From: Candidatus Colwellbacteria bacterium
GTDB taxonomy: Bacteria; Patescibacteriota; Minisyncoccia; UBA6257; Colwellbacteraceae
Assembly (NCBI GenBank): GCA_027448785.1
Contig: DAIDMW010000001.1
Location: 1,668-65,667 of the forward strand
Length of the DNA: 64,000 nucleotides
Direction: 5' to 3'
A model generated the notes under the pieces. The model had not been told where the DNA came from and searched no databases. It saw only the letters and a program-made list of their open reading frames with translations. The number at the start of each line of letters is the position of its first letter. The stretch's first letter is position 1. Made by a program: the position numbers and the translations under genes. Positions 1,955-59,228 of this stretch are shown piece after piece.

Positions 1955-2048
1955 CTCGCATCGAAAAAGCGGTTCGGGTGGTTGCTTTAAACGGCACCTG
2001 CCCGGCCGCTTTTTATTTTTCTTGTTTTAACGCGGTTTTTCTGCTAAC

Positions 2049-3596
2049 TTGGAGGCGATGCCCGAAACTCCTTCCAAAAACTCAATGCAGCGCCCGCCGA
2101 TCGTGGTGGTGATGGGACATGTCGATCACGGCAAGACCAGCCTTCTGGATTATATCCGCAAGGCCAATGTTGTGGCGCGCGAAGCAGGGGGGATAACCCA
2201 ATCCATCGGTGCTTATGAAATTGAGCACCCTTCGACAAGCTCAGGGCAAGCTCCTTCGACAAGCTCAGGGCAGGCTCCTTCGACAAGCTCAGGGCAAGCT
2301 CCTTCGACAAGCTCAGGGCAAGCTAGAAAAATCACTTTTATTGACACCCCCGGGCACGAGGCTTTTACGGCTATGCGCTCCAGGGGCGCGACGGTCGCTG
2401 ACATCGCCATCCTGGTCGTGGCCGCCGACGAAGGAGTGAAGCCCCAGACCTTGGAGGCGATTAACACTCTGAAAGAAGTTGGCACTCCTTATATAGTAGC
2501 CATCACCAAGATCGACCGGCCGAACGCGAATATCGAGAAGGTCAAGTCGGAACTTCTCTCCAACGGAGTTTTATTGGAAGGAATGGGAGGCGACGTCAGC
2601 TGGCAGGGCGTTTCCGCCGTTACCGGCGAGGGGGTGAATGAGCTTATAGATCTCATCTTGCTATTGGGCGATGTTTTAGACCTGCGGTACGATCCGGGAG
2701 CGACAGCCGAGGGCGTGATAATCGAAGCGACCAAGGACAGCCGCCGCGGAGTCGTGGCCAGCCTTATTTTGCGCGACGGAATCCTGCGCGAAGGCGAATA
2801 CATCACCACCGAGACCACCTACGGGAAGATAAAGCTGCTGGAGAACTTCAAAGGCGAAAGGGTCCAGGAGCTTTCTCCTTCCGCTCCGGCGCGGGTCGTG
2901 GGTTTCGAAGAGCTGCCGCTGGTCGGCGAGCGCTTCCAGGCCGGCGATATCAATTTGGCCGAGATCAAGCTGGCGGCCGCCGGTTCGGCTATCAAAGCCG
3001 CCGGGCTGTCGGAGGCTGAAGAAAGCAAGGAGGCGGTGAAGCTCATAACCAAAGCCGACACCGCTGGATCGCTTGAGGCTCTGAACCACGTCATTAAAGG
3101 AGTAGAAGGTGTGCGCGTCATTAGCAGCGCGGTCGGCGATATCACCGACGGCGATGTGGACCAGGCCATAAGCACGGGCAGCCTCATCGTTGGTTTCCGC
3201 GTCAAAGCTTCCGGTTCGACTTTGAACCGCGCGCAGATCAAGAACATTAAAATAATCAGTTCGGAGATAATCTATAAGATCGTCGAGGAGATAGAGGCGC
3301 ACTTGAAAGAGCTTCGCGGAGCTATGGTCGCCGGCGAGCTGGAGATTCTGAAGATATTCGAGACCGAGGGCAAGCGTGTGGTTTTGGGAGGACGAGTCGT
3401 AACCGGCTCAATTAAAGTCGGCATCGAAGTCAAGGTGGAGAGGCGCGGCAGCCAAATTTCCTCGGCGCGGATTATTAATTTGCAAGAAAATCGCAAGGAC
3501 GTGACGGAAGTCGCCGAGGGCAAAGAATGCGGTATGCTCGTCGAGTCCGAAGGTAAACTCCTGCCGGGAGACCGCCTGAAGATTTTTTCCGAATAA
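2049..3596 (+). CDS. infB: translation initiation factor IF-2 (core G2-C2 form, no N-terminal domains)
   Basis: G1 motif [22 protein letters not shown] and DTPGHEAF. Domain order matches IF-2, and it is followed by rbfA as in canonical operons. Confidence 0.9.
2229..2324 (+). repeat. perfect 4x24-bp tandem repeat (ccttcgacaagctcagggcaagct, one SNP) in-frame within infB, encoding (PSTSSGQA)x4
   Basis: Read directly from the sequence: four contiguous 24-nt units between the G2 region and DTPGH of IF-2. Confidence 0.9.
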
Positions 3597-3600
3597 CAAA

Positions 3601-3942
3601 ATGAAAGCGCATCGCGCCGAAAGGATAGCTAGCCTGATTCACGAGGAGTTGGGGAAATTCTTATTGCGCGAAGTGGAATTTCCCGAGGGCAGCCTGGTAA
3701 CCATCAGCCGAGTAGAGGTTGACCGAGAGTTAGCCACTGCCTCGGTCTGGGTCAGCGTCCTGCCGTCGTCGAGCAAGGGGGAGGTGATGAAGATTTTAAA
3801 GGACGAGCAAGGAAGGATGCAGTTCCTTTTGAACCGGAAGATGAATATCAAGCCGATGCCGCGCATCAATTTTTTGCTGGATGAGGGGCTGGAAAAAGCG
3901 GCGGCAATTGAAAAAATATTTATTGCTGGAGATAATCAGTAA
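3601..3942 (+). CDS. rbfA: ribosome-binding factor A
   Basis: ~113 aa, N-terminus RAERIASLIHEELGKFLL resembles RbfA, immediately downstream of infB. Confidence 0.7.
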   Translation: MKAHRAERIASLIHEELGKFLLREVEFPEGSLVTISRVEVDRELATASVWVSVLPSSSKGEVMKILKDEQGRMQFLLNRKMNIKPMPRINFLLDEGLEKAAAIEKIFIAGDNQ

Positions 3943-3948
3943 GGCGCT

Positions 3949-4020
3949 GGCCTGGTAGCCAAGTGGTAAGGCGAAGGTCTGCAAAACCTTTATACGCGGG
4001 TTCGATTCCCGCCCAGGCCT
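3949..4020 (+). tRNA. tRNA-Cys (anticodon GCA)
   Basis: Acceptor stem GGCCTGG/CCAGGCC. Anticodon stem AAGGT/ACCTT with loop CTGCAAA. T-arm GCGGG-TTCGATT-CCCGC. Discriminator T. Confidence 0.85.
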
Positions 4021-4022
4021 CA

Positions 4023-4661
4023 ATGAAAGTGATTCCGGCGATAAACTGCGAAAACTTCGAGTGCGTTTCCGAGAAGATTATTCTAGCCTCGCAGTTTGCG
4101 GATTGGGTGCAGATCGACGTGTCCGACGGAAAATTTTCGCCAGCGCTCACCTGGAATAATCCGGAAAAATTGGCAGAGTGGCTTAAGGAGAATGAATCCG
4201 GCCTTAAGATCGAGGTTCATCTCATGGTAGAAGACGTCTTAAATGAAGCTCTGCGCTGGTTGAAGGCTGGCGCAAACAGGGTGGTCGTCCAGTCCGGGAT
4301 AGAGTTCGATTACGAGAAACTGCTCGCGGTCTGCGACGAGCACGGAGCCGAAGCGATGCTGTCTTTTTCTCCGCAATCCGCCGTCGGCGACAATCTTTCC
4401 TTGGCTTCCGCTTTTCGCGAGTTCCAGGTGCTGGCGGTTTCTCCGGGATTTGCCGGGCAGGAGTTCGGCGATGAAGCGATTATGAAGATAAAGTCTTTGC
4501 GCCGAGTTTTCCCCGATGCTATCATTGAAGTGGATGGGGGAATAAATCCCGCGACGGCCAAAGCAGTTAGTTTGGCCGGAGCGGATATCGTCGTCTCCGC
4601 GTCCTACATTTTTGAAAGTAAAAATCCGCGCGAAGCTTTTTTCGAGCTGCGAGCGGTATAA
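4023..4661 (+). CDS. rpe: ribulose-phosphate 3-epimerase-like protein
   Basis: VQIDVSDGKF resembles the RPE IHVDVMDGHF motif, and there is a C-terminal VDGG motif. The track ORF begins inside the tRNA; the ATG at 4023 in the same frame is the plausible start. Confidence 0.5.
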   Translation: MKVIPAINCENFECVSEKIILASQFADWVQIDVSDGKFSPALTWNNPEKLAEWLKENESGLKIEVHLMVEDVLNEALRWLKAGANRVVVQSGIEFDYEKLLAVCDEHGAEAMLSFSPQSAVGDNLSLASAFREFQVLAVSPGFAGQEFGDEAIMKIKSLRRVFPDAIIEVDGGINPATAKAVSLAGADIVVSASYIFESKNPREAFFELRAV

Positions 4662-4674
4662 GATCAAACAACTC

Positions 4675-5537: not shown

Positions 5538-6554
5538 ATGTTGAACAAGAGCGCTAAATTATCTCCGAATCTTGGGGCTGAAAAAGTAGAGGAGGTTCCC
5601 ATCCGCAACGGTTATGGCGAGGGTCTGATGATAGCCGGCGAAAAGGATGCTAATGTGGTGGTCCTTTGCGCCGACCTTACCGAATCGACTCGCTCGGAGG
5701 CGTTTTCCAAAAAATATCCCGAGCGCTTTTTCGAGGTAGGAGTGGCGGAACAAAATCTGGCGACCATCGCCGCCGGTTTGGGGATCTCCGGGAAAGTGCC
5801 GTTTATTTCCTCTTATGCCACTTTTTCGCCGGGAAGGAATTGGGAGCAGATCCGCACCACCATCTCTTACAACGATTCCAACGTGAAAATCGCCGGACAC
5901 CACGCGGGGATCTCAACCGGTCCGGACGGCGCTACCCACCAAGCGGTGGAGGATATCGCGACGATGCGGGTGATGGCCAACATGACGGTCGTAGTTCCCT
6001 GCGATGCCATAGAGGCGAAAAAAGCGACTATCGCCGCCGCGGAAATAAAAGGCCCGGTCTATCTAAGGTTCGCCCGAGAAAAGACGGCGGTTATAACGAC
6101 GGAAGACACGCCGTTCGAGGTCGGCAAGGCCGAGATCTTTTACCAGACGACGAAGCCGCAAGCCGCGATCATCGCCTGCGGCACCCTGGTTTACAACGCT
6201 TTGGTTGCGGCTAAGGAACTCGAAAAGGAAGGCATTAACGTCCTGGTCGTGAATAACCACACGATCAAGCCGATCGATGAAAAAAAGATACTCGAGGTCG
6301 CAAAGAAATGCGGCGCGATCGTCACGGTTGAAGAGCATCAGGTTGCAGGAGGCCTGGGCGGAGCGGTAGCCGAGGTTTTGGCCAAAGGTTCACCGACGCC
6401 GATGGAGTTTGTCGGCTTGCAGGGAGTCTTCGGCGAGTCAGGAAATCCAAAGGAGCTTATCGAAAAGTACGGAATGGGCGTGAAAGACATCAAGGAGGCA
6501 GTGAAGAAGGCGGTAAAGCGCAAAAGACAAAACACCGAAAATCCTAAATCCTAA
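5538..6554 (+). CDS. transketolase, C-terminal subunit
   Basis: Pyrimidine-binding/C-terminal TK domains (GISTGPDGATHQAVEDIA). ATG at 5538, 3 nt after the N-subunit stop. The last ~12 codons lie inside intergenic repeat element E1. Confidence 0.8.
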   Translation: MLNKSAKLSPNLGAEKVEEVPIRNGYGEGLMIAGEKDANVVVLCADLTESTRSEAFSKKYPERFFEVGVAEQNLATIAAGLGISGKVPFISSYATFSPGRNWEQIRTTISYNDSNVKIAGHHAGISTGPDGATHQAVEDIATMRVMANMTVVVPCDAIEAKKATIAAAEIKGPVYLRFAREKTAVITTEDTPFEVGKAEIFYQTTKPQAAIIACGTLVYNALVAAKELEKEGINVLVVNNHTIKPIDEKKILEVAKKCGAIVTVEEHQVAGGLGGAVAEVLAKGSPTPMEFVGLQGVFGESGNPKELIEKYGMGVKDIKEAVKKAVKRKRQNTENPKS

Positions 6555-6722
6555 TATCGAAATCCGAAACAAATTCGAAATTACAAATTAGAAACTCCAA
6601 ACCCGTTTGTGTTTCGTATTTGGAATTTGTAGTTTGTGATTTGTTTAGGATTTAGAATTTCGAGTTTCGGATTTTCGTTGTTTTACGCTTTTCGCTTTGC
6701 GCTCCTTTGTTTTGCGCTTCCC
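6515..6722. repeat. composite palindromic intergenic repeat element E1 (A-arm / AT-rich hairpin module / A'-arm)
   Basis: aaagcgcaaaag...aaatccgaaacaaattcgaaattacaaa...caaacccgtttgtg...tttcggattt...ttttcgctttgcgc. The same architecture occurs at 12 other sites. Confidence 0.8.
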
Positions 6723-6765
6723 ATTGTCTCTAGCTCCAGATGCGATGAGCGGCTATAATTGTTTT

Positions 6766-12121: not shown

Positions 12122-12344
12122 AAGCGCAAAAGGCAAAGCGCAAAAGAACGAAAATCCGAAATCCGAAATACTAAATCCGAAACAAATTCGAAATTACAAA
12201 CTTCAAATTACAAACCTGCTTGTGTTTATGATTTCGGATTTGTTATTTGTGATTTGTTTAGTATTTCGATATTAGGATTTTGAGCTTTCGTTATTTTGCA
12301 TTTTGCGCTTTTCGCTTCGCGTTTCTTTGTTTTGCGCTTTTCTT
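12121..12344. repeat. composite palindromic intergenic repeat element E3 (best exemplar)
   Basis: aagcgcaaaaggcaaagcgcaaaag + long AT-rich imperfect hairpin centred on cctgcttgtg + ttttgcattttgcgcttttcgcttcgc. Confidence 0.85.
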
Positions 12345-13821: not shown

Positions 13822-14562
13822 ATGGAGGATCGGAAAGACATAACACAGATAAAGCCTAATAAAGGGAAGGAGATTAACATCGACGTTAGCGGAGCGACTT
13901 ATGCCCGCTACCCCATTAAAACGCCGCTAATTAACCCGGGGGACAGCTTGGAAAAACTGATCGACGAATTACTCAGACCCTATCTCGAGCCTGGGGACGT
14001 GATCTTCATCAGCGAGAAGGTCGTAGCCGTCACGCAGAACAGGATTATTCCGATAAAGGAGGTAAAGCCGTCGTGGCTAGCCAGAATTCTGGCGCGCAAC
14101 GTGAAGAATAATTGGGGCACCAAAGACTTCCGCGGATTCGGGCACGGGACGCCGATGGCGATGGAGCTCTTTATCCGCGAGGCCGGCGTGCCGCGGGTGA
14201 TATTTGCGGCCGGCATCTCGGCTGTTACCAGGCCTTTTGGCATCAAGGGCGCTTTCTACGCTCTCAGCGGCAAAAACGCCAAATCGGTCGACTGTCCGAT
14301 GTCCTTCATCCTTTACCCCTATACTCAATACGCCAAACTAGCGCCTTTGAACCCGAACCGGGTGGCGGAAGAGCTGAAGAAGAAGTTCGGACACGAGGTG
14401 GTGGTGGTGGATGCCAACTACCGCGGGGTTTATTCCTTGGGGAAATCGACAAAGAAATTGACGGAGAGGTTCATTCACGACGTCTTCCGCGACAATCCGC
14501 TTGGGCAATCGGACGAGCAGACGCCACTTTGCATAGTTAGAAAAGCGCAAAATTCAAAGTAA
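13822..14562 (+). CDS. CofE-like (F420-0:gamma-glutamyl ligase family) protein
   Basis: ~246 aa with GDVIFISEKVVAVTQNRII resembling the CofE/F420-ligase fold. Assignment is from memory of the family pattern. Confidence 0.4.
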   Translation: MEDRKDITQIKPNKGKEINIDVSGATYARYPIKTPLINPGDSLEKLIDELLRPYLEPGDVIFISEKVVAVTQNRIIPIKEVKPSWLARILARNVKNNWGTKDFRGFGHGTPMAMELFIREAGVPRVIFAAGISAVTRPFGIKGAFYALSGKNAKSVDCPMSFILYPYTQYAKLAPLNPNRVAEELKKKFGHEVVVVDANYRGVYSLGKSTKKLTERFIHDVFRDNPLGQSDEQTPLCIVRKAQNSK

Positions 14563-14692
14563 CGAAATTCCAAATCCTAAATCAGAAATTCGAAACAAAT
14601 TTAAAAGCGCAAAGAGAAAAGCGTAAAATAACGGTAGGTCGTTAGTCGTCGGATCTTTTAAGCTTTGCGCTTTTAGTTTTGCGCTTTAAACT
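14541..14692. repeat. intergenic repeat element E5, inverted copy of E4 (core ggtcgttagtcgtcggatc)
   Basis: Reverse complement of the E4 core and arms. Overlaps the last codons of the CofE-like gene and of prfA. Confidence 0.8.
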
Positions 14693-15395
14693 CCTTAACT
14701 ATCGGATCCATGTCCCCGCCCATAATTTTTTCGATATGGTGCCACTTCTTGTTGATGCGATGATCGGTGATCCGGTCTTGGGGGAAGTTGTAAGTGCGGA
14801 TTTTCTCCGACCTCTCGGCTGAGCCGATCTGCTCACGGCGCAAGCCGGTCATCTTACTCTCCTCCATCTCTTTTTGCGCCTCGTATAGTTTGGAGCGCAG
14901 GATGGATAGTGCCTGCTCTTTGTTGGCGGACTGGGAGCGCTCGGTTTGGGAGGAGACGACCACGCCGGTCGGCTTATGGATGATTCTGACCGCGGTTTCA
15001 ACCTTGTTGACGTTCTGTCCGCCGGGGCCAGAGGAGCGGAAGAATTCGATCTGCAGGTCGTTGGGGTTAACGTCGAACTCTCGCGGCTCGACGACCGGCA
15101 TTACCGCGACCGACGCAGTCGAGGTGTGCACTCGGCCGGCCTTTTCGGTTTCGGGTATGCGCTGGACGCGATGAACTCCGGCTTCTTGTTTCAAGTCGGA
15201 ATAGGCGCCATCGCCTTCGATTCTCCCGACGAGGGTCTTATAGCCGTTGAGACTAGTCTGGTTCATATCTAAAACCACAAACTTCCAACCGCGCCGCGCC
15301 GCGTACCTTTCATACATCCTGGCCAGGTCGCCGGCAAAAATAGCAGCCTCGTCTCCGCCGGCTCCGGCTCTTATTTCTAATATGGCTTTCTCCAT
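14673..15395 (-). CDS. prfA: peptide chain release factor 1-like, lacking N-terminal domain 1
   Basis: GGQ motif (RSSGPGGQNVNKV) and a PET tripeptide at the RF1 PxT position (RIPETEKAGRVHTS). Aligns to E. coli RF1 from about residue 110 onward. No upstream ORF or space for domain 1. Confidence 0.8.
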   Translation of the reverse strand: MEKAILEIRAGAGGDEAAIFAGDLARMYERYAARRGWKFVVLDMNQTSLNGYKTLVGRIEGDGAYSDLKQEAGVHRVQRIPETEKAGRVHTSTASVAVMPVVEPREFDVNPNDLQIEFFRSSGPGGQNVNKVETAVRIIHKPTGVVVSSQTERSQSANKEQALSILRSKLYEAQKEMEESKMTGLRREQIGSAERSEKIRTYNFPQDRITDHRINKKWHHIEKIMGGDMDPIVKEFKAQN

Positions 15396-17536: not shown

Positions 17537-17680
17537 TTTAAGAATCGACCATTCCGTAGTTCGCCTTAGGCGAGCGAAGGATGGAAATGGTGTTGATCGA
17601 GGAGCCAATTGTCTCGATCGCCCAATCGTGCTTCGGCACGGTCGGGCTCTAGACTGGGACAACTAAAAGGCCTCTACAGA

Positions 17681-17932
17681 AGCGCAAAGCGAAAAACGCA
17701 AAACTCAAAATAATTGACGGTTAACAGACTGCCGTTGTTTTTCGCTTTTAGCTTTTAGTTTTGCGCTAAATTCGAAGCTCTAAATCCTAAATTCTAAATA
17801 AATCACAAATCCTAAATTCCAAACACAAACGGGTTTGTGATTTGATGTTTGGTATTTCGAATTTGTTTCAGATTTAGTATTTCAGATTTAGAATTTTCGT
17901 TATTTTTCGCTTTTAGCTTTTAGTTTTTAATT
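17681..17932. repeat. composite palindromic intergenic repeat element E7 (downstream of 16S)
   Basis: agaagcgcaaagcgaaaaacgcaaaac...ttttcgcttttagcttttagttttgcgc + AT-rich hairpin centred on caaacgggtttgtg + ttttcgcttttagcttttag. Confidence 0.8.
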
Positions 17933-18007
17933 TTATTGACCGTCCTGCATGTTGGGTATATTCTTTAGACATACCCGCAAGGGAGCGAATATCCATATTT
18001 ATAGAAA

Positions 18008-23588: not shown

Positions 23589-24077
23589 ATGATAAGCAAT
23601 AAGGGTTTTACTCTAATCGAGCTGCTGATAGTCATGTCGATCATGGCGATAATCGCCGTCGTCACCCTGCCTAACTTCTTCAGCTCCCGTTACCGCTACT
23701 CTTTAAATAAGGACGCCGAGGGCTTGGCCTACGGCATCCGCGCCGCCATTTCCAATTCACAGACGCAGCTGAACGCCAGCCGCTGGGGCATTCGCCTGAG
23801 CAACAACACCTCGACCGGCGGCTACTATTACCAGCTGTGGTACGGCACCTCGACCTACGCTTACGGCACACCGTCGACTCTGACGCCGCTAGACCAAGGT
23901 ATTAGTTTTTCCGGTATTGCGCTTGGCTCGGCTGTGGATATCTGCTTCGCTCAAATCAGCGGCCTGCCGGTGGACTGTTCGACCGGCCTCGGCACCTCGA
24001 CGGCGATTACTTTAAGCGCCATCGGCGGCCAGCAAACAACGGTGACGCTGAATGCCAACGGGACGGTCAACTACTAA
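23589..24077 (+). CDS. type IV pilin-like protein (MISNKG|FTLIELLIVMSIMAII)
   Basis: Class III signal peptide and N-terminal helix. Ser/Thr/Gly-rich globular part. Confidence 0.7.
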   Translation: MISNKGFTLIELLIVMSIMAIIAVVTLPNFFSSRYRYSLNKDAEGLAYGIRAAISNSQTQLNASRWGIRLSNNTSTGGYYYQLWYGTSTYAYGTPSTLTPLDQGISFSGIALGSAVDICFAQISGLPVDCSTGLGTSTAITLSAIGGQQTTVTLNANGTVNY

Positions 24078-24370
24078 AAGCGCAAAGCTAAAAGCTAAAA
24101 GCAGCGGCAAAGCGAGCGCAAAGCGAAAAACGCAAAGCGCAAAACACCGACCAGTAATTAACTAAATTCGAAGCACTAAATCCTAAACAAATTCCAAATT
24201 ACAAACTTTAAATTCCAAACCCGTTTGTGTTTGTGATTTCGGATTTGTTATTTCTGATTTGTTTCGGATTTAGGATTTCGTGCTTGGAATTTGAAAAAAA
24301 GCGCAAAGGCAAAAGAACGATTCCAACGAACTGCGTTATTGTTTTTCGCTTTTAGCTTTTAGTTTTGCAC
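24078..24370. repeat. composite palindromic intergenic repeat element E10
   Basis: aaaagcgcaaagctaaaagctaaaagc...gcgcaaagcgaaaaacgcaaagcgcaaaac + AT-rich hairpin (caaacccgtttgtg centre) + ttttcgcttttagcttttagttttgcac. Confidence 0.8.
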
Positions 24371-24409
24371 TTATTTATCAACTGTTCTCCGTTTCATCTT
24401 TATTTTATA

Positions 24410-28509: not shown

Positions 28510-28548
28510 TTAGTTTTAGCTTAGAATCAAGGACCAGCGAGGTCAAAT

Positions 28549-28790
28549 AAAGCGCAAAACGAAAAGCGCAAAAGGCAAAAGAACCTACATCCGACGACTA
28601 GTCGTTATTTTTCGCTTTTAGTTTTTCGCTTTGCGCTTCCTAGACCCGTCCGTGTTTCGTATTTGGAATTTGTAAATTGGAGTTTGTTTCGGATTTAGGA
28701 TTTAGTGCTTCGAATTTGCCTAGCCACTAATCTCTAACCACTAGTCTCTATTTTTCGCTTTGCGCTTTAAGTTTTGCGCTTTTAGCTTTG
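28549..28790. repeat. composite intergenic repeat element E11
   Basis: aaagcgcaaaacgaaaagcgcaaaaggcaaaag...catccgacgactagtcgtta...ttttcgcttttagtttttcgctttgcgc + half AT-rich module + ttttcgctttgcgctttaagttttgcgcttttagc. Confidence 0.8.
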
Positions 28791-28911
28791 CCCCTTGCCC
28801 CTTCAGATGGATTATATTAAAATCCGGTGAGTAATAGCTGTTCAGCTGCCGATTCTAGTCAAAATGAAAAATAAACGGGGGAATCCGTCTTCCGGAAACT
28901 GTTTAAATTAA

Positions 28912-59102: not shown

Positions 59103-59228
59103 ATGGCAGCTAAGAAAAAAGCTCCGGCTCGTCGCAAGACGGTCGCTAAGAAGACCACTAAGAAGGTCGTAAAGAAGACCGCCAAGAGGACCGCTGCGAA
59201 GAGGCCGGCTAAGAGGAAGAGCCGGTAA
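59103..59228 (+). CDS. 41-aa Lys/Ala-rich highly basic protein (histone H1/Hc-like tail), not in ORF track
   Basis: MAAKKKAPARRKTVAKKTTKKVVKKTAKRTAAKRPAKRKSR translated manually. Flanked by a consensus promoter and an intrinsic terminator. Confidence 0.55.
   Translation: MAAKKKAPARRKTVAKKTTKKVVKKTAKRTAAKRPAKRKSR

Follow-up and report, generated by a model that had tools for sequence, protein, structure and literature searches.

The stretch analysed here (the window) is 64,000 nucleotides of contig DAIDMW010000001.1 from a Candidatus Colwellbacteria bacterium, and the feature under study is a tandem array of four 24-bp units that lies in frame within infB, the gene for translation initiation factor IF-2 (Table 1). 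The infB product is composed of the G domain and domains II, C1 and C2; the N-terminal domains are absent. Pfam identifies GTP_EFTU (2.3e-36) and IF-2 (5.5e-20), along with EF-G_D2 and GTP_EFTU_D2, and the top matches in the PDB are bacterial IF2 chains (E=1e-94). The motifs of translational GTPases (G1 GHVDHGKT, G2 GGITQ, G3 DTPGH and an NKxD-type motif) are invariant in the IF-2 alignments A1 and A2. The ATG that opens the open reading frame (ORF) is also the start in orthologues 95-98% identical, and the nearest named homologues come from metagenome-assembled genomes (MAGs) labelled 'Patescibacteria group bacterium'. Against TIGR00487 the protein scores 416.8 bits, below the NCBIfam equivalog cut-off of 424.4, with the match broken into two stretches by the 32-aa insert; the practical effect of the insert is that the IF-2 score falls just under this cut-off. 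Because the infB-rbfA synteny is conserved, the sequence is nonetheless assigned as a bacterial IF-2.

Table 1 Features of the window at the infB locus, with the units of the array given separately.
Feature	Position in window	Strand	Basis or remark
infB, short Patescibacteria-type IF-2 (512 aa)	2058..3596, stop codon included	+	ORF list, Pfam, TIGR00487, orthologue starts
Codons of G2/switch I threonine motif and strand beta2, directly upstream of array	2187..2228	+	alignment A1; model strand 51-57
Tandem array, 4 x 24 bp, unit CCTTCGACAAGCTCAGGGCAAGCT, in frame, PSTSSGQA x4 = residues 58-89	2229..2324	+	Tandem Repeats Finder (TRF), pattern search, translation
Unit 1, consensus	2229..2252	+	pattern search
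Unit 2, sole variant unit: A>G at 2273, CAA>CAG, both Gln	2253..2276	+	pattern search
Unit 3, consensus	2277..2300	+	pattern search
Unit 4, consensus; AGA AAA (Arg-Lys) of beta3 directly after	2301..2324	+	pattern search
Codons of strand beta3 and G3 (DTPGH), directly downstream of array	2325..2357	+	alignment A1; model strand 90-96; 3j4j_A alignment resumes at residue 92
rbfA	3601-3942		next gene after infB
tRNA-Cys	3949-4021		after rbfA

TRF reports the array at period 24 with 4.0 copies, 97% matches and a score of 185, and lists no other strong array in the region. With a pattern search the count is exactly four copies, three of them identical, and none of 100 dinucleotide-preserving shuffles gave any match to the repeat pattern. 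Elsewhere in the window, at 59135-59195, there is another tandem repeat (period 12/24, consensus CGCTAAGAAGAC, 70-79% matches) that probably encodes a Lys/Ala/Thr-rich low-complexity segment.

An AlphaFold2 model of the protein (mean predicted local distance difference test score, pLDDT, 80.8) forms beta2 from residues 51-57 and beta3 from residues 90-96, joined by coil whose residues 61-87 fall at pLDDT <50. Alignment with Thermus thermophilus IF2 (3j4j_A) pairs query residues 6-59 with chain residues 66-119 and 92-510 with 122-564, so that 2 residues in the Thermus protein stand against 32 at the insert. Modelling thus places the array at the tip of the beta2-beta3 hairpin of the IF-2 G domain, and the PSTSSGQA loop is predicted to be disordered, low pLDDT being no proof of disorder. 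A preliminary description of this DNA had read four 24-bp copies with one A/G difference, encoding PSTSSGQA four times in the beta2-beta3 loop of IF-2 between G2 and G3. The count and the single difference are borne out by TRF and by the pattern search with its shuffles, and the location by translation, by alignment and by the structural modelling that the description had suggested. An intein was considered and found implausible, as the insert is 32 residues without splicing motifs.

The length of the array differs between close relatives. The best database match (P0001) is 98% identical outside the gap, 16 residues shorter, and carries two units; within its 90% cluster, P0123 has three units and P0125, P0126 and P0127 have two. 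At the DNA level, locus L004 (three units) is 98.8-100% identical to the window across 2.7 kb, minus exactly 24 bp, and L001 (two units) is 99-100% identical downstream, minus exactly 48 bp. A further contig, L005, is 99.9% identical to the window and begins inside the array, the single hint of copy-number heterogeneity within one population. The three-unit allele was found in an ENA sample (L004) and again in an independent JGI metagenome (L208). Alleles of 2, 3 and 4 units therefore sit in collinear flanking DNA that is 98.8-99.9% identical, and are separated by clean 24- or 48-bp gaps. The A>G change of unit 2 is absent from the 2- and 3-unit alleles. The ORF is intact in every allele observed, the unit of 24 nt being 8 codons, and phase-variable on/off switching is not seen. 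Near-identical head-to-tail units that keep the frame, together with whole-unit differences between near-identical genomes, support reading the locus as a coding variable-number tandem repeat (VNTR).

More distant relatives hold fewer units. The sister group, at ~80% DNA identity from infB onward, has a single one. In P0129 (L006-L008) this unit is exact at the protein level and is written CCC TCG ACA AGC TCG GGG CAG GCG. P0002 and P0128 have one diverged unit (PSTGSEQA in P0002), the P0003 group has TLTGSGRV at the insert site and P0004-6 have only 'NG' there. The corresponding DNA reads CCC TCG ACA GGC TCG GAG CAA GCG in L002 and ACT TTA ACA GGC TCA GGG CGC GTG in L003. This series indicates that recent amplification in the lineage of the window started from an older insert, one 24-nt copy, and that 2-, 3- and 4-unit alleles coexist among near-identical strains. 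It also agrees with the proposal in the preliminary description of a recent expansion whose copy number varies between closely related strains: the comparison of infB across relatives that it recommended returns the alleles described above, with one unit or none further out, and no orthologue with a conserved, non-repetitive loop of the same length was seen.

The repeat leaves its mark on public records. Three gene calls (P0121, P0122 and P0124) are 407 aa long and start at Met106, 3' of the array. The two of these with readable contigs begin either inside the array (L005 1-100) or just upstream of it (L208 1-175). The array thus causes broken assemblies and 5'-truncated infB annotations that lack G1-G3. 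Separately, P0126 is a 566-aa IF-2 in which the first ~95 residues, of IF2_N type and with a different G1 context, are fused to a two-unit protein of the window type; the probable cause is a chimeric metagenome contig whose parts meet in the conserved G1 region.

Mosaic boundaries were also noted near the array. The upstream M16 peptidase gene (window ~795-2050) is 98-100% identical to that of the single-unit lineage L006, and from the infB start onward identity to L006/L007/L008 falls to about 70-90%; this places a sharp recombination boundary against L006 at ~2060-2075, roughly 150 bp upstream of the array. L001 (1455-1710 against window 2021-2276) has 10 mismatches in window 2063-2189, several of them of L006/L002 type, and none thereafter until 2444; its upstream gene also differs, with no M16 peptidase. 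Two explanations fit L001: recombination, with a crossover no more than about 40 bp upstream of the array, or chimeric assembly of the contig. The ends of BLAST segment pairs against L006 and L001 had hinted at a breakpoint at the repeat itself. This idea was dropped, because sliding-window alignment puts the L006 boundary at about 2060-2075 and the L001 boundary at 2189-2229, outside the array in both cases.

The unit is not confined to this gene. An exact scan of one genome per species (596 Gbp) with a 20-mer core, TCGACAAGCTCAGGGCAAGC, returned at least 131 matches in at least 120 stretches, against ~1.1 expected by theory (2 x 596e9 / 4^20). Hosts among the matches listed span more than 10 phyla, including Acidobacteriota, Planctomycetota, Chloroflexota, Cyanobacteria, Bacteroidota, Omnitrophota, Lentisphaerota and Margulisiibacteriota, as well as Alpha-, Gamma- and Deltaproteobacteria and many lineages of the Candidate Phyla Radiation (CPR). 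Cultured isolates are represented (Sphingopyxis granuli NBRC 100800, Chakrabartia godavariana, Citromicrobium bathyomarinum and Microcoleus), viral contigs contribute 12 matches, and complete Sphingobium and Novosphingobium replicons have several unannotated sites each. None was found in 5,426 complete genomes of E. coli (28 Gbp). The flanks of the matches listed are unrelated between loci, and similarity spans cc(c)t to GCAAGC, defining a module of ~24 nt, the length of the window unit, with the consensus CCTTCGRCARGCTCAGGRCAAGC(N). The window unit holds the exact 20-mer with the same boundaries as the 131 matches listed, and is hence a copy of the module. A further 46 diverged copies (up to 5 mismatches) lie at the same loci, where at most one is expected. 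Variation among them falls mainly at positions 7 (A/G), 10 (A/G), 18 (G/A) and 19-22, and positions 7, 10 and 18 are also variable among the IF-2 copies (T/A, S/G and GGG/GGA).

Full-text literature searches with the DNA string, its reverse complement and the peptide signatures, incomplete in coverage, found no description of the module. Rfam holds no family equal to the module itself; the only matches were to Acido-Lenti-1 RNA, two of them containing the module as a loop insertion. The motif does not match the repetitive extragenic palindrome (REP) super-families tagged GTAG or CGTC (PMC3733652). One metagenomic genome, Pseudomonadota bacterium P01_F01_bin.151 (L010, L019, L022, L047 and L104), has many module copies over several contigs and on both strands, together with stuttered sub-blocks (CCTTCGAC, ARGCTCAGGG and CAAGC), and looks like a genome with a highly amplified family.

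Within genes, the module is read in several ways. The longest covering ORF reaches at least 200 codons for 63 of the 131 matches listed, with STSSGQA (31), LRQAQGK (15) and FDKLRAS (6) as forward frames and ACPELVEG (7) and LALSLSKG (4) as reverse ones. Pfam verifies at least 18 in-frame hosts, which use 4 frames and both orientations. They comprise PNPase, GatB, EF-G, AlaRS, alanine racemase, FolD, UPF0102/YraN, the transketolase C-terminal subunit, a GT4 glycosyltransferase, DprA, a GluRS/GlnRS catalytic domain, an LCAT-like lipase, a sulfatase and a PQQ/BamB-like propeller protein, with Lnt (FDKLRAS) and PolX (LRQAQGK) in other frames and LeuRS and a PPDK-like enzyme in reverse orientation. 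That the hydrophilic STSSGQA frame predominates among verified genes is consistent with purifying selection on which insertions survive. The EF-G of a Saccharibacteria MAG (L106, gene 2494-4665, minus strand) has the module at 4403-4422 in the same frame as IF-2 (HSTSSGQAGDKEKKYRFNIIDTPGH), just before ...YRFNIIDTPGH. This site is the beta2-beta3 loop, the structural equivalent of the IF-2 site in a paralogous translational GTPase.

Outside protein genes, both module copies of L039 lie inside Acido-Lenti-1 RNA matches that span 70 nt against the 46-nt model, with 25 inserted nt versus 1 in the consensus terminal loop. Duplexes of -15 kcal/mol or below form between the flanks of 10.9% of the matches listed, compared with 4.6% of re-paired controls (Mann-Whitney p=0.03), and 14 of the 131 have an inverted partner within 150 nt. 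The idea that the module always occupies hairpin loops was rejected, being true of a minority only given this modest enrichment. Simple-repeat arrays also host it (a Microcoleus heptamer array, L063, and a period-38 array, L054). The module forms independent 24-bp tandem arrays elsewhere: a Flavobacteriales MAG (L023) has four units at ~200-300, near the C terminus of a 598-aa ORF (196-1989) with no Pfam match, and others occur in L115 (Peribacteria, three diverged units), L082, L102 and the viral contig L207.

We compared the insert site across CPR IF-2 proteins. In 132 of these, the loop between ITQxxGA and the beta3/G3 segment has no insert in 48 cases and an 8-residue insert in 26, with a tail of up to 47 residues. 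The 8-residue inserts are mostly PS[TA]SSGQ[AV]; their carriers are ~50% identical to the window IF-2, while closer relatives are without insert. On a neighbour-joining tree of 123 taxa computed with the loop masked, the loop states (none, module or other insert) require 43 parsimony changes, against 56.9 on average and a minimum of 48 for shuffled states. The insert site is thus extremely labile and its state highly homoplastic rather than clade-defining.

Codon usage separates the insert from its surroundings. A codon-degenerate pattern (SGQ[AV] and downstream residues), blind to synonymous positions, retrieved 64 metagenome loci, 53 of them unique. The module proline is CCT in 41 of 43, against CCC 24, CCG 19, CCT 7 and CCA 3 for flank prolines; the module glutamine is CAA in 45 of 53, against CAG 27 and CAA 15 in the flanks. 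Module serines use TCR only (first, TCG 39 and TCA 8; third, TCA 44 and TCG 9), and module glycine is GGG or GGA, where flank glycine is mostly GGC. Third-base entropy is 0.3-0.7 bits for most module codons and 1.2-1.9 bits at four-fold sites of the flanks. The conserved block ends at the last module codon (GCN), because the third base of this codon is random. As read from these alignments, the insert is conserved at the nucleotide level, which selection on the protein alone would not predict.

The same codon position accepts other elements. The loop of P0072 has two module copies in two reading frames (CCTTCGAC...GGCTCGGGACAAGC and TCCTTCGATAAAGCTCAGGACAAG, the latter giving SFDKAQDK). The 31-residue insert of P0109 corresponds to a DNA/RNA hairpin of -39.5 kcal/mol (L194), built from a module-like arm, ATCCTTCGTGTGGCTCAGGAT, and its inverted copy, and that of P0013 (TQINAD...ISVNQR...) to one of -35.7 kcal/mol (L195) that belongs to another repeat family. 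The beta2-beta3 position of CPR IF-2 is therefore occupied repeatedly by short repeat elements that are predicted to be translated through.

Two side observations were made. GIY-YIG and HNH endonuclease genes lie just 3' of infB-rbfA at two CPR loci with long IF-2 inserts (L194 3532-4300; L193 4242-4539), which may be coincidental. The window itself has long, nested, imperfect palindromes in intergenic DNA 3' of genes (6530-6725, 12140-12265, 14555-14695, 17675-17935, 24065-24375 and 28540-28810), consisting of ~7-nt periodic A-rich units (AAATCCG, AAAGCGC, CTAAAAG) followed by their complements. The palindrome at 24065-24375 folds at -103.7 kcal/mol (z = -7.9) and that at 17675-17935 at -68.1 kcal/mol (z = -5.1). 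They look like the hairpin elements in IF-2 loops of other lineages (L195), and are without the 24-nt module.

We consider it likely that the array is an in-frame coding minisatellite of the IF-2 G domain, whose unit is a copy of the cross-phylum 24-nt module, amplified by slippage in a tolerated, disordered loop. The module would have reached IF-2 as a DNA insertion, present as a single copy at this codon position in many CPR IF-2 genes. Here, the resident copy may then have been duplicated and subsequently expanded and contracted by slipped-strand mispairing or by unequal recombination between identical units. Its length of 8 codons and the lack of a stop in 5 of 6 frames would allow read-through, and the product would be a loop of 8 to 32 residues, rich in Pro, Ser, Thr, Gly, Gln and Ala, that is tolerated and near neutral. 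Near-neutrality is suggested because the hairpin tip accepts 0-47 extra residues in other CPR lineages. The preliminary description of a VNTR in an essential GTPase therefore stands as to repeat and variation and is amended as to origin: the unit is not an anonymous product of local slippage but a copy of an older, dispersed module, and within this wider phenomenon the VNTR is just the final step.

A number of points tell against an inserted and amplified module. No second copy was found in the 64-kb window (~5-8% of a typical CPR genome), whether allowing up to 7 mismatches in 23 nt or as a CTTCG-N4-GCTCAGG match, nor is there an inverted partner of the unit, so that terminal inverted repeats and palindromy are lacking; within the window, the module is unlike a high-copy dispersed repeat. 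Inspection of the IF-2 site showed no target-site duplication. No transposase turned up with the module, in work that included no search aimed at such an association. Where relatives lack the insert they have 'NG' in its place, and for this reason the event was not a clean insertion of 24 nt. Selection on an RNA or DNA signal within infB is another possible cause of the nucleotide-level conservation. The neighbour-joining tree is weakly resolved at about 50% identity, the 20-mer expectation assumes uniform base composition and the counts set against it are lower bounds, and copy numbers were read from assembled contigs and gene calls, with the translation of the array taken from the ORF only.

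A wider and more tentative proposal concerns the module itself, which might be a minimal self-propagating or templated DNA element of bacteria and phages. Such an element would enter single-stranded or permissive sites (RNA hairpin loops, simple repeats and codons for surface loops), be read through, amplify in tandem and remodel IF-2, favouring the beta2-beta3 hairpin of IF-2 and EF-G. In-frame insertion into protein and RNA genes without disruption is observed, as for known palindromic and miniature inverted-repeat elements; many dispersed copies per genome are not, within the 64-kb window.

Four alternatives to the amplified module were weighed. The first is purely local: an old, lineage-specific 8-residue loop of CPR IF-2, kept for a protein reason, would have undergone slippage here, and matches elsewhere would be coincidence or convergence. 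The 8-aa loop is widespread in CPR IF-2, the window has no further copy, and the insert diverges in step with the gene within the window's clade (L002, L003), as vertical descent predicts. We regard this account as unlikely: in the same 53 sequences, synonymous sites are far more conserved in the insert than in the flanks; the exact 20-mer recurs in unrelated coding and non-coding contexts at more than a hundred times its expectation of about one; module DNA is read in other frames or orientation in other genes and in the P0072 loop; and presence and absence are patchy on the IF-2 tree.

Selection on loop length has a slim chance of being the explanation. As an adaptive tuning or contingency locus, the array would alter GTPase activity or ribosome contacts through the length of a loop near switch I, or evade an inhibitor or phage factor. 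The insert is close to switch I of an essential GTPase, several alleles coexist in related samples and the equivalent loop is also hit in EF-G. Set against this, a unit length that is a multiple of three leaves no room for on/off switching, disorder is predicted for the loop, and other lineages have unrelated low-complexity sequence of 0 to 47 residues at this site. The presence of the module in many unrelated enzymes and in non-coding DNA points to tolerance over an IF-2-specific function.

Slimmer still is the chance that units were added by the module's own propagation (templated or enzyme-mediated re-insertion beside an existing copy) rather than by generic slippage. Identity of the units up to the junction base, with whole-unit differences between alleles, is the expected outcome of ordinary slippage or unequal crossing-over from two existing copies, and no candidate enzyme was identified; in favour of re-insertion are the independent arrays of 24-nt period in Flavobacteriales, Peribacteria, Portnoybacteria, Anaerolineales and a viral contig, and the stuttering of sub-blocks CCTTCGAC and AGGGCAAGC. 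Finally, although assemblers sometimes break here (L005 begins inside the array and three cluster members are called from after it), an error of short-read assembly in copy number is very unlikely, because arrays of 48-96 bp are shorter than k=141 (ENA contigs) and typical reads, one internal unit of the window's array is a variant, independent assemblies of an ENA and a JGI sample both gave the 3-unit allele, several contigs carry the 2-unit allele, and the gaps are clean whole units in collinear flanks.

The amplified module has consequences at two scales. Within one lineage, it yields a strain-level length polymorphism (16, 24 or 32 extra residues) in the IF-2 G domain by switch I, which shows how permissive the hairpin tip is and offers a natural allelic series for asking whether loop length affects initiation. 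Across bacteria, a 24-nt module is conserved to the base in more than 10 phyla, in essential genes, a structured-RNA motif and intergenic repeats. Should the module prove mobile or templated, it would widen the 'selfish DNA in protein-coding genes' of Rickettsia to much of the bacterial domain, with a far smaller element, and would account for many recurring low-complexity peptides in predicted proteomes.

Among known systems, Rickettsia palindromic elements (RPEs) offer the nearest comparison. RPEs are 105-146 bp repeats found in frame in conserved protein genes and also in tmRNA and RNase P RNA, and are neutral or slightly deleterious (PMC2229807). The module resembles them as a short repeat in frame in conserved genes at permissive surface positions, with several open frames, and in entering structured RNA genes (here the Acido-Lenti-1 loop). 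It differs in scale and distribution: RPEs are palindromic, belong to one genus and are multi-copy per genome, whereas the module is 24 nt, not palindromic alone, forms tandem arrays, has its exact 20-mer shared by more than 10 phyla and occurs once (as the array) in the 64-kb window. REPs inside genes are also on record (PMC3733652). Unlike REPs and miniature inverted-repeat transposable elements, the module has no terminal inverted repeat or target-site duplication that we found, and no partner like the REP-associated tyrosine transposases turned up, such an association not having been searched for.

Lineage-specific conserved indels of translational GTPases (for example in the G domains of IF-2 and EF-G) share with the insert its fixed position at the beta2-beta3 tip and the intact G1-G4 motifs; set apart from them are its labile state, its conservation at the nucleotide level and the use of one site by different repeat-element families across lineages. 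Coding VNTRs are similar in their identical head-to-tail units, a multiple of three in length, and in whole-unit differences between near-identical strains. The array differs from these in its host, which is neither a secreted nor a surface protein but an essential, universally conserved translation factor of the cytoplasm whose catalytic G domain holds the array, and in a unit that is a copy of a widely dispersed module and not a locus-specific sequence. As a VNTR, its mechanism is ordinary and its location unusual.

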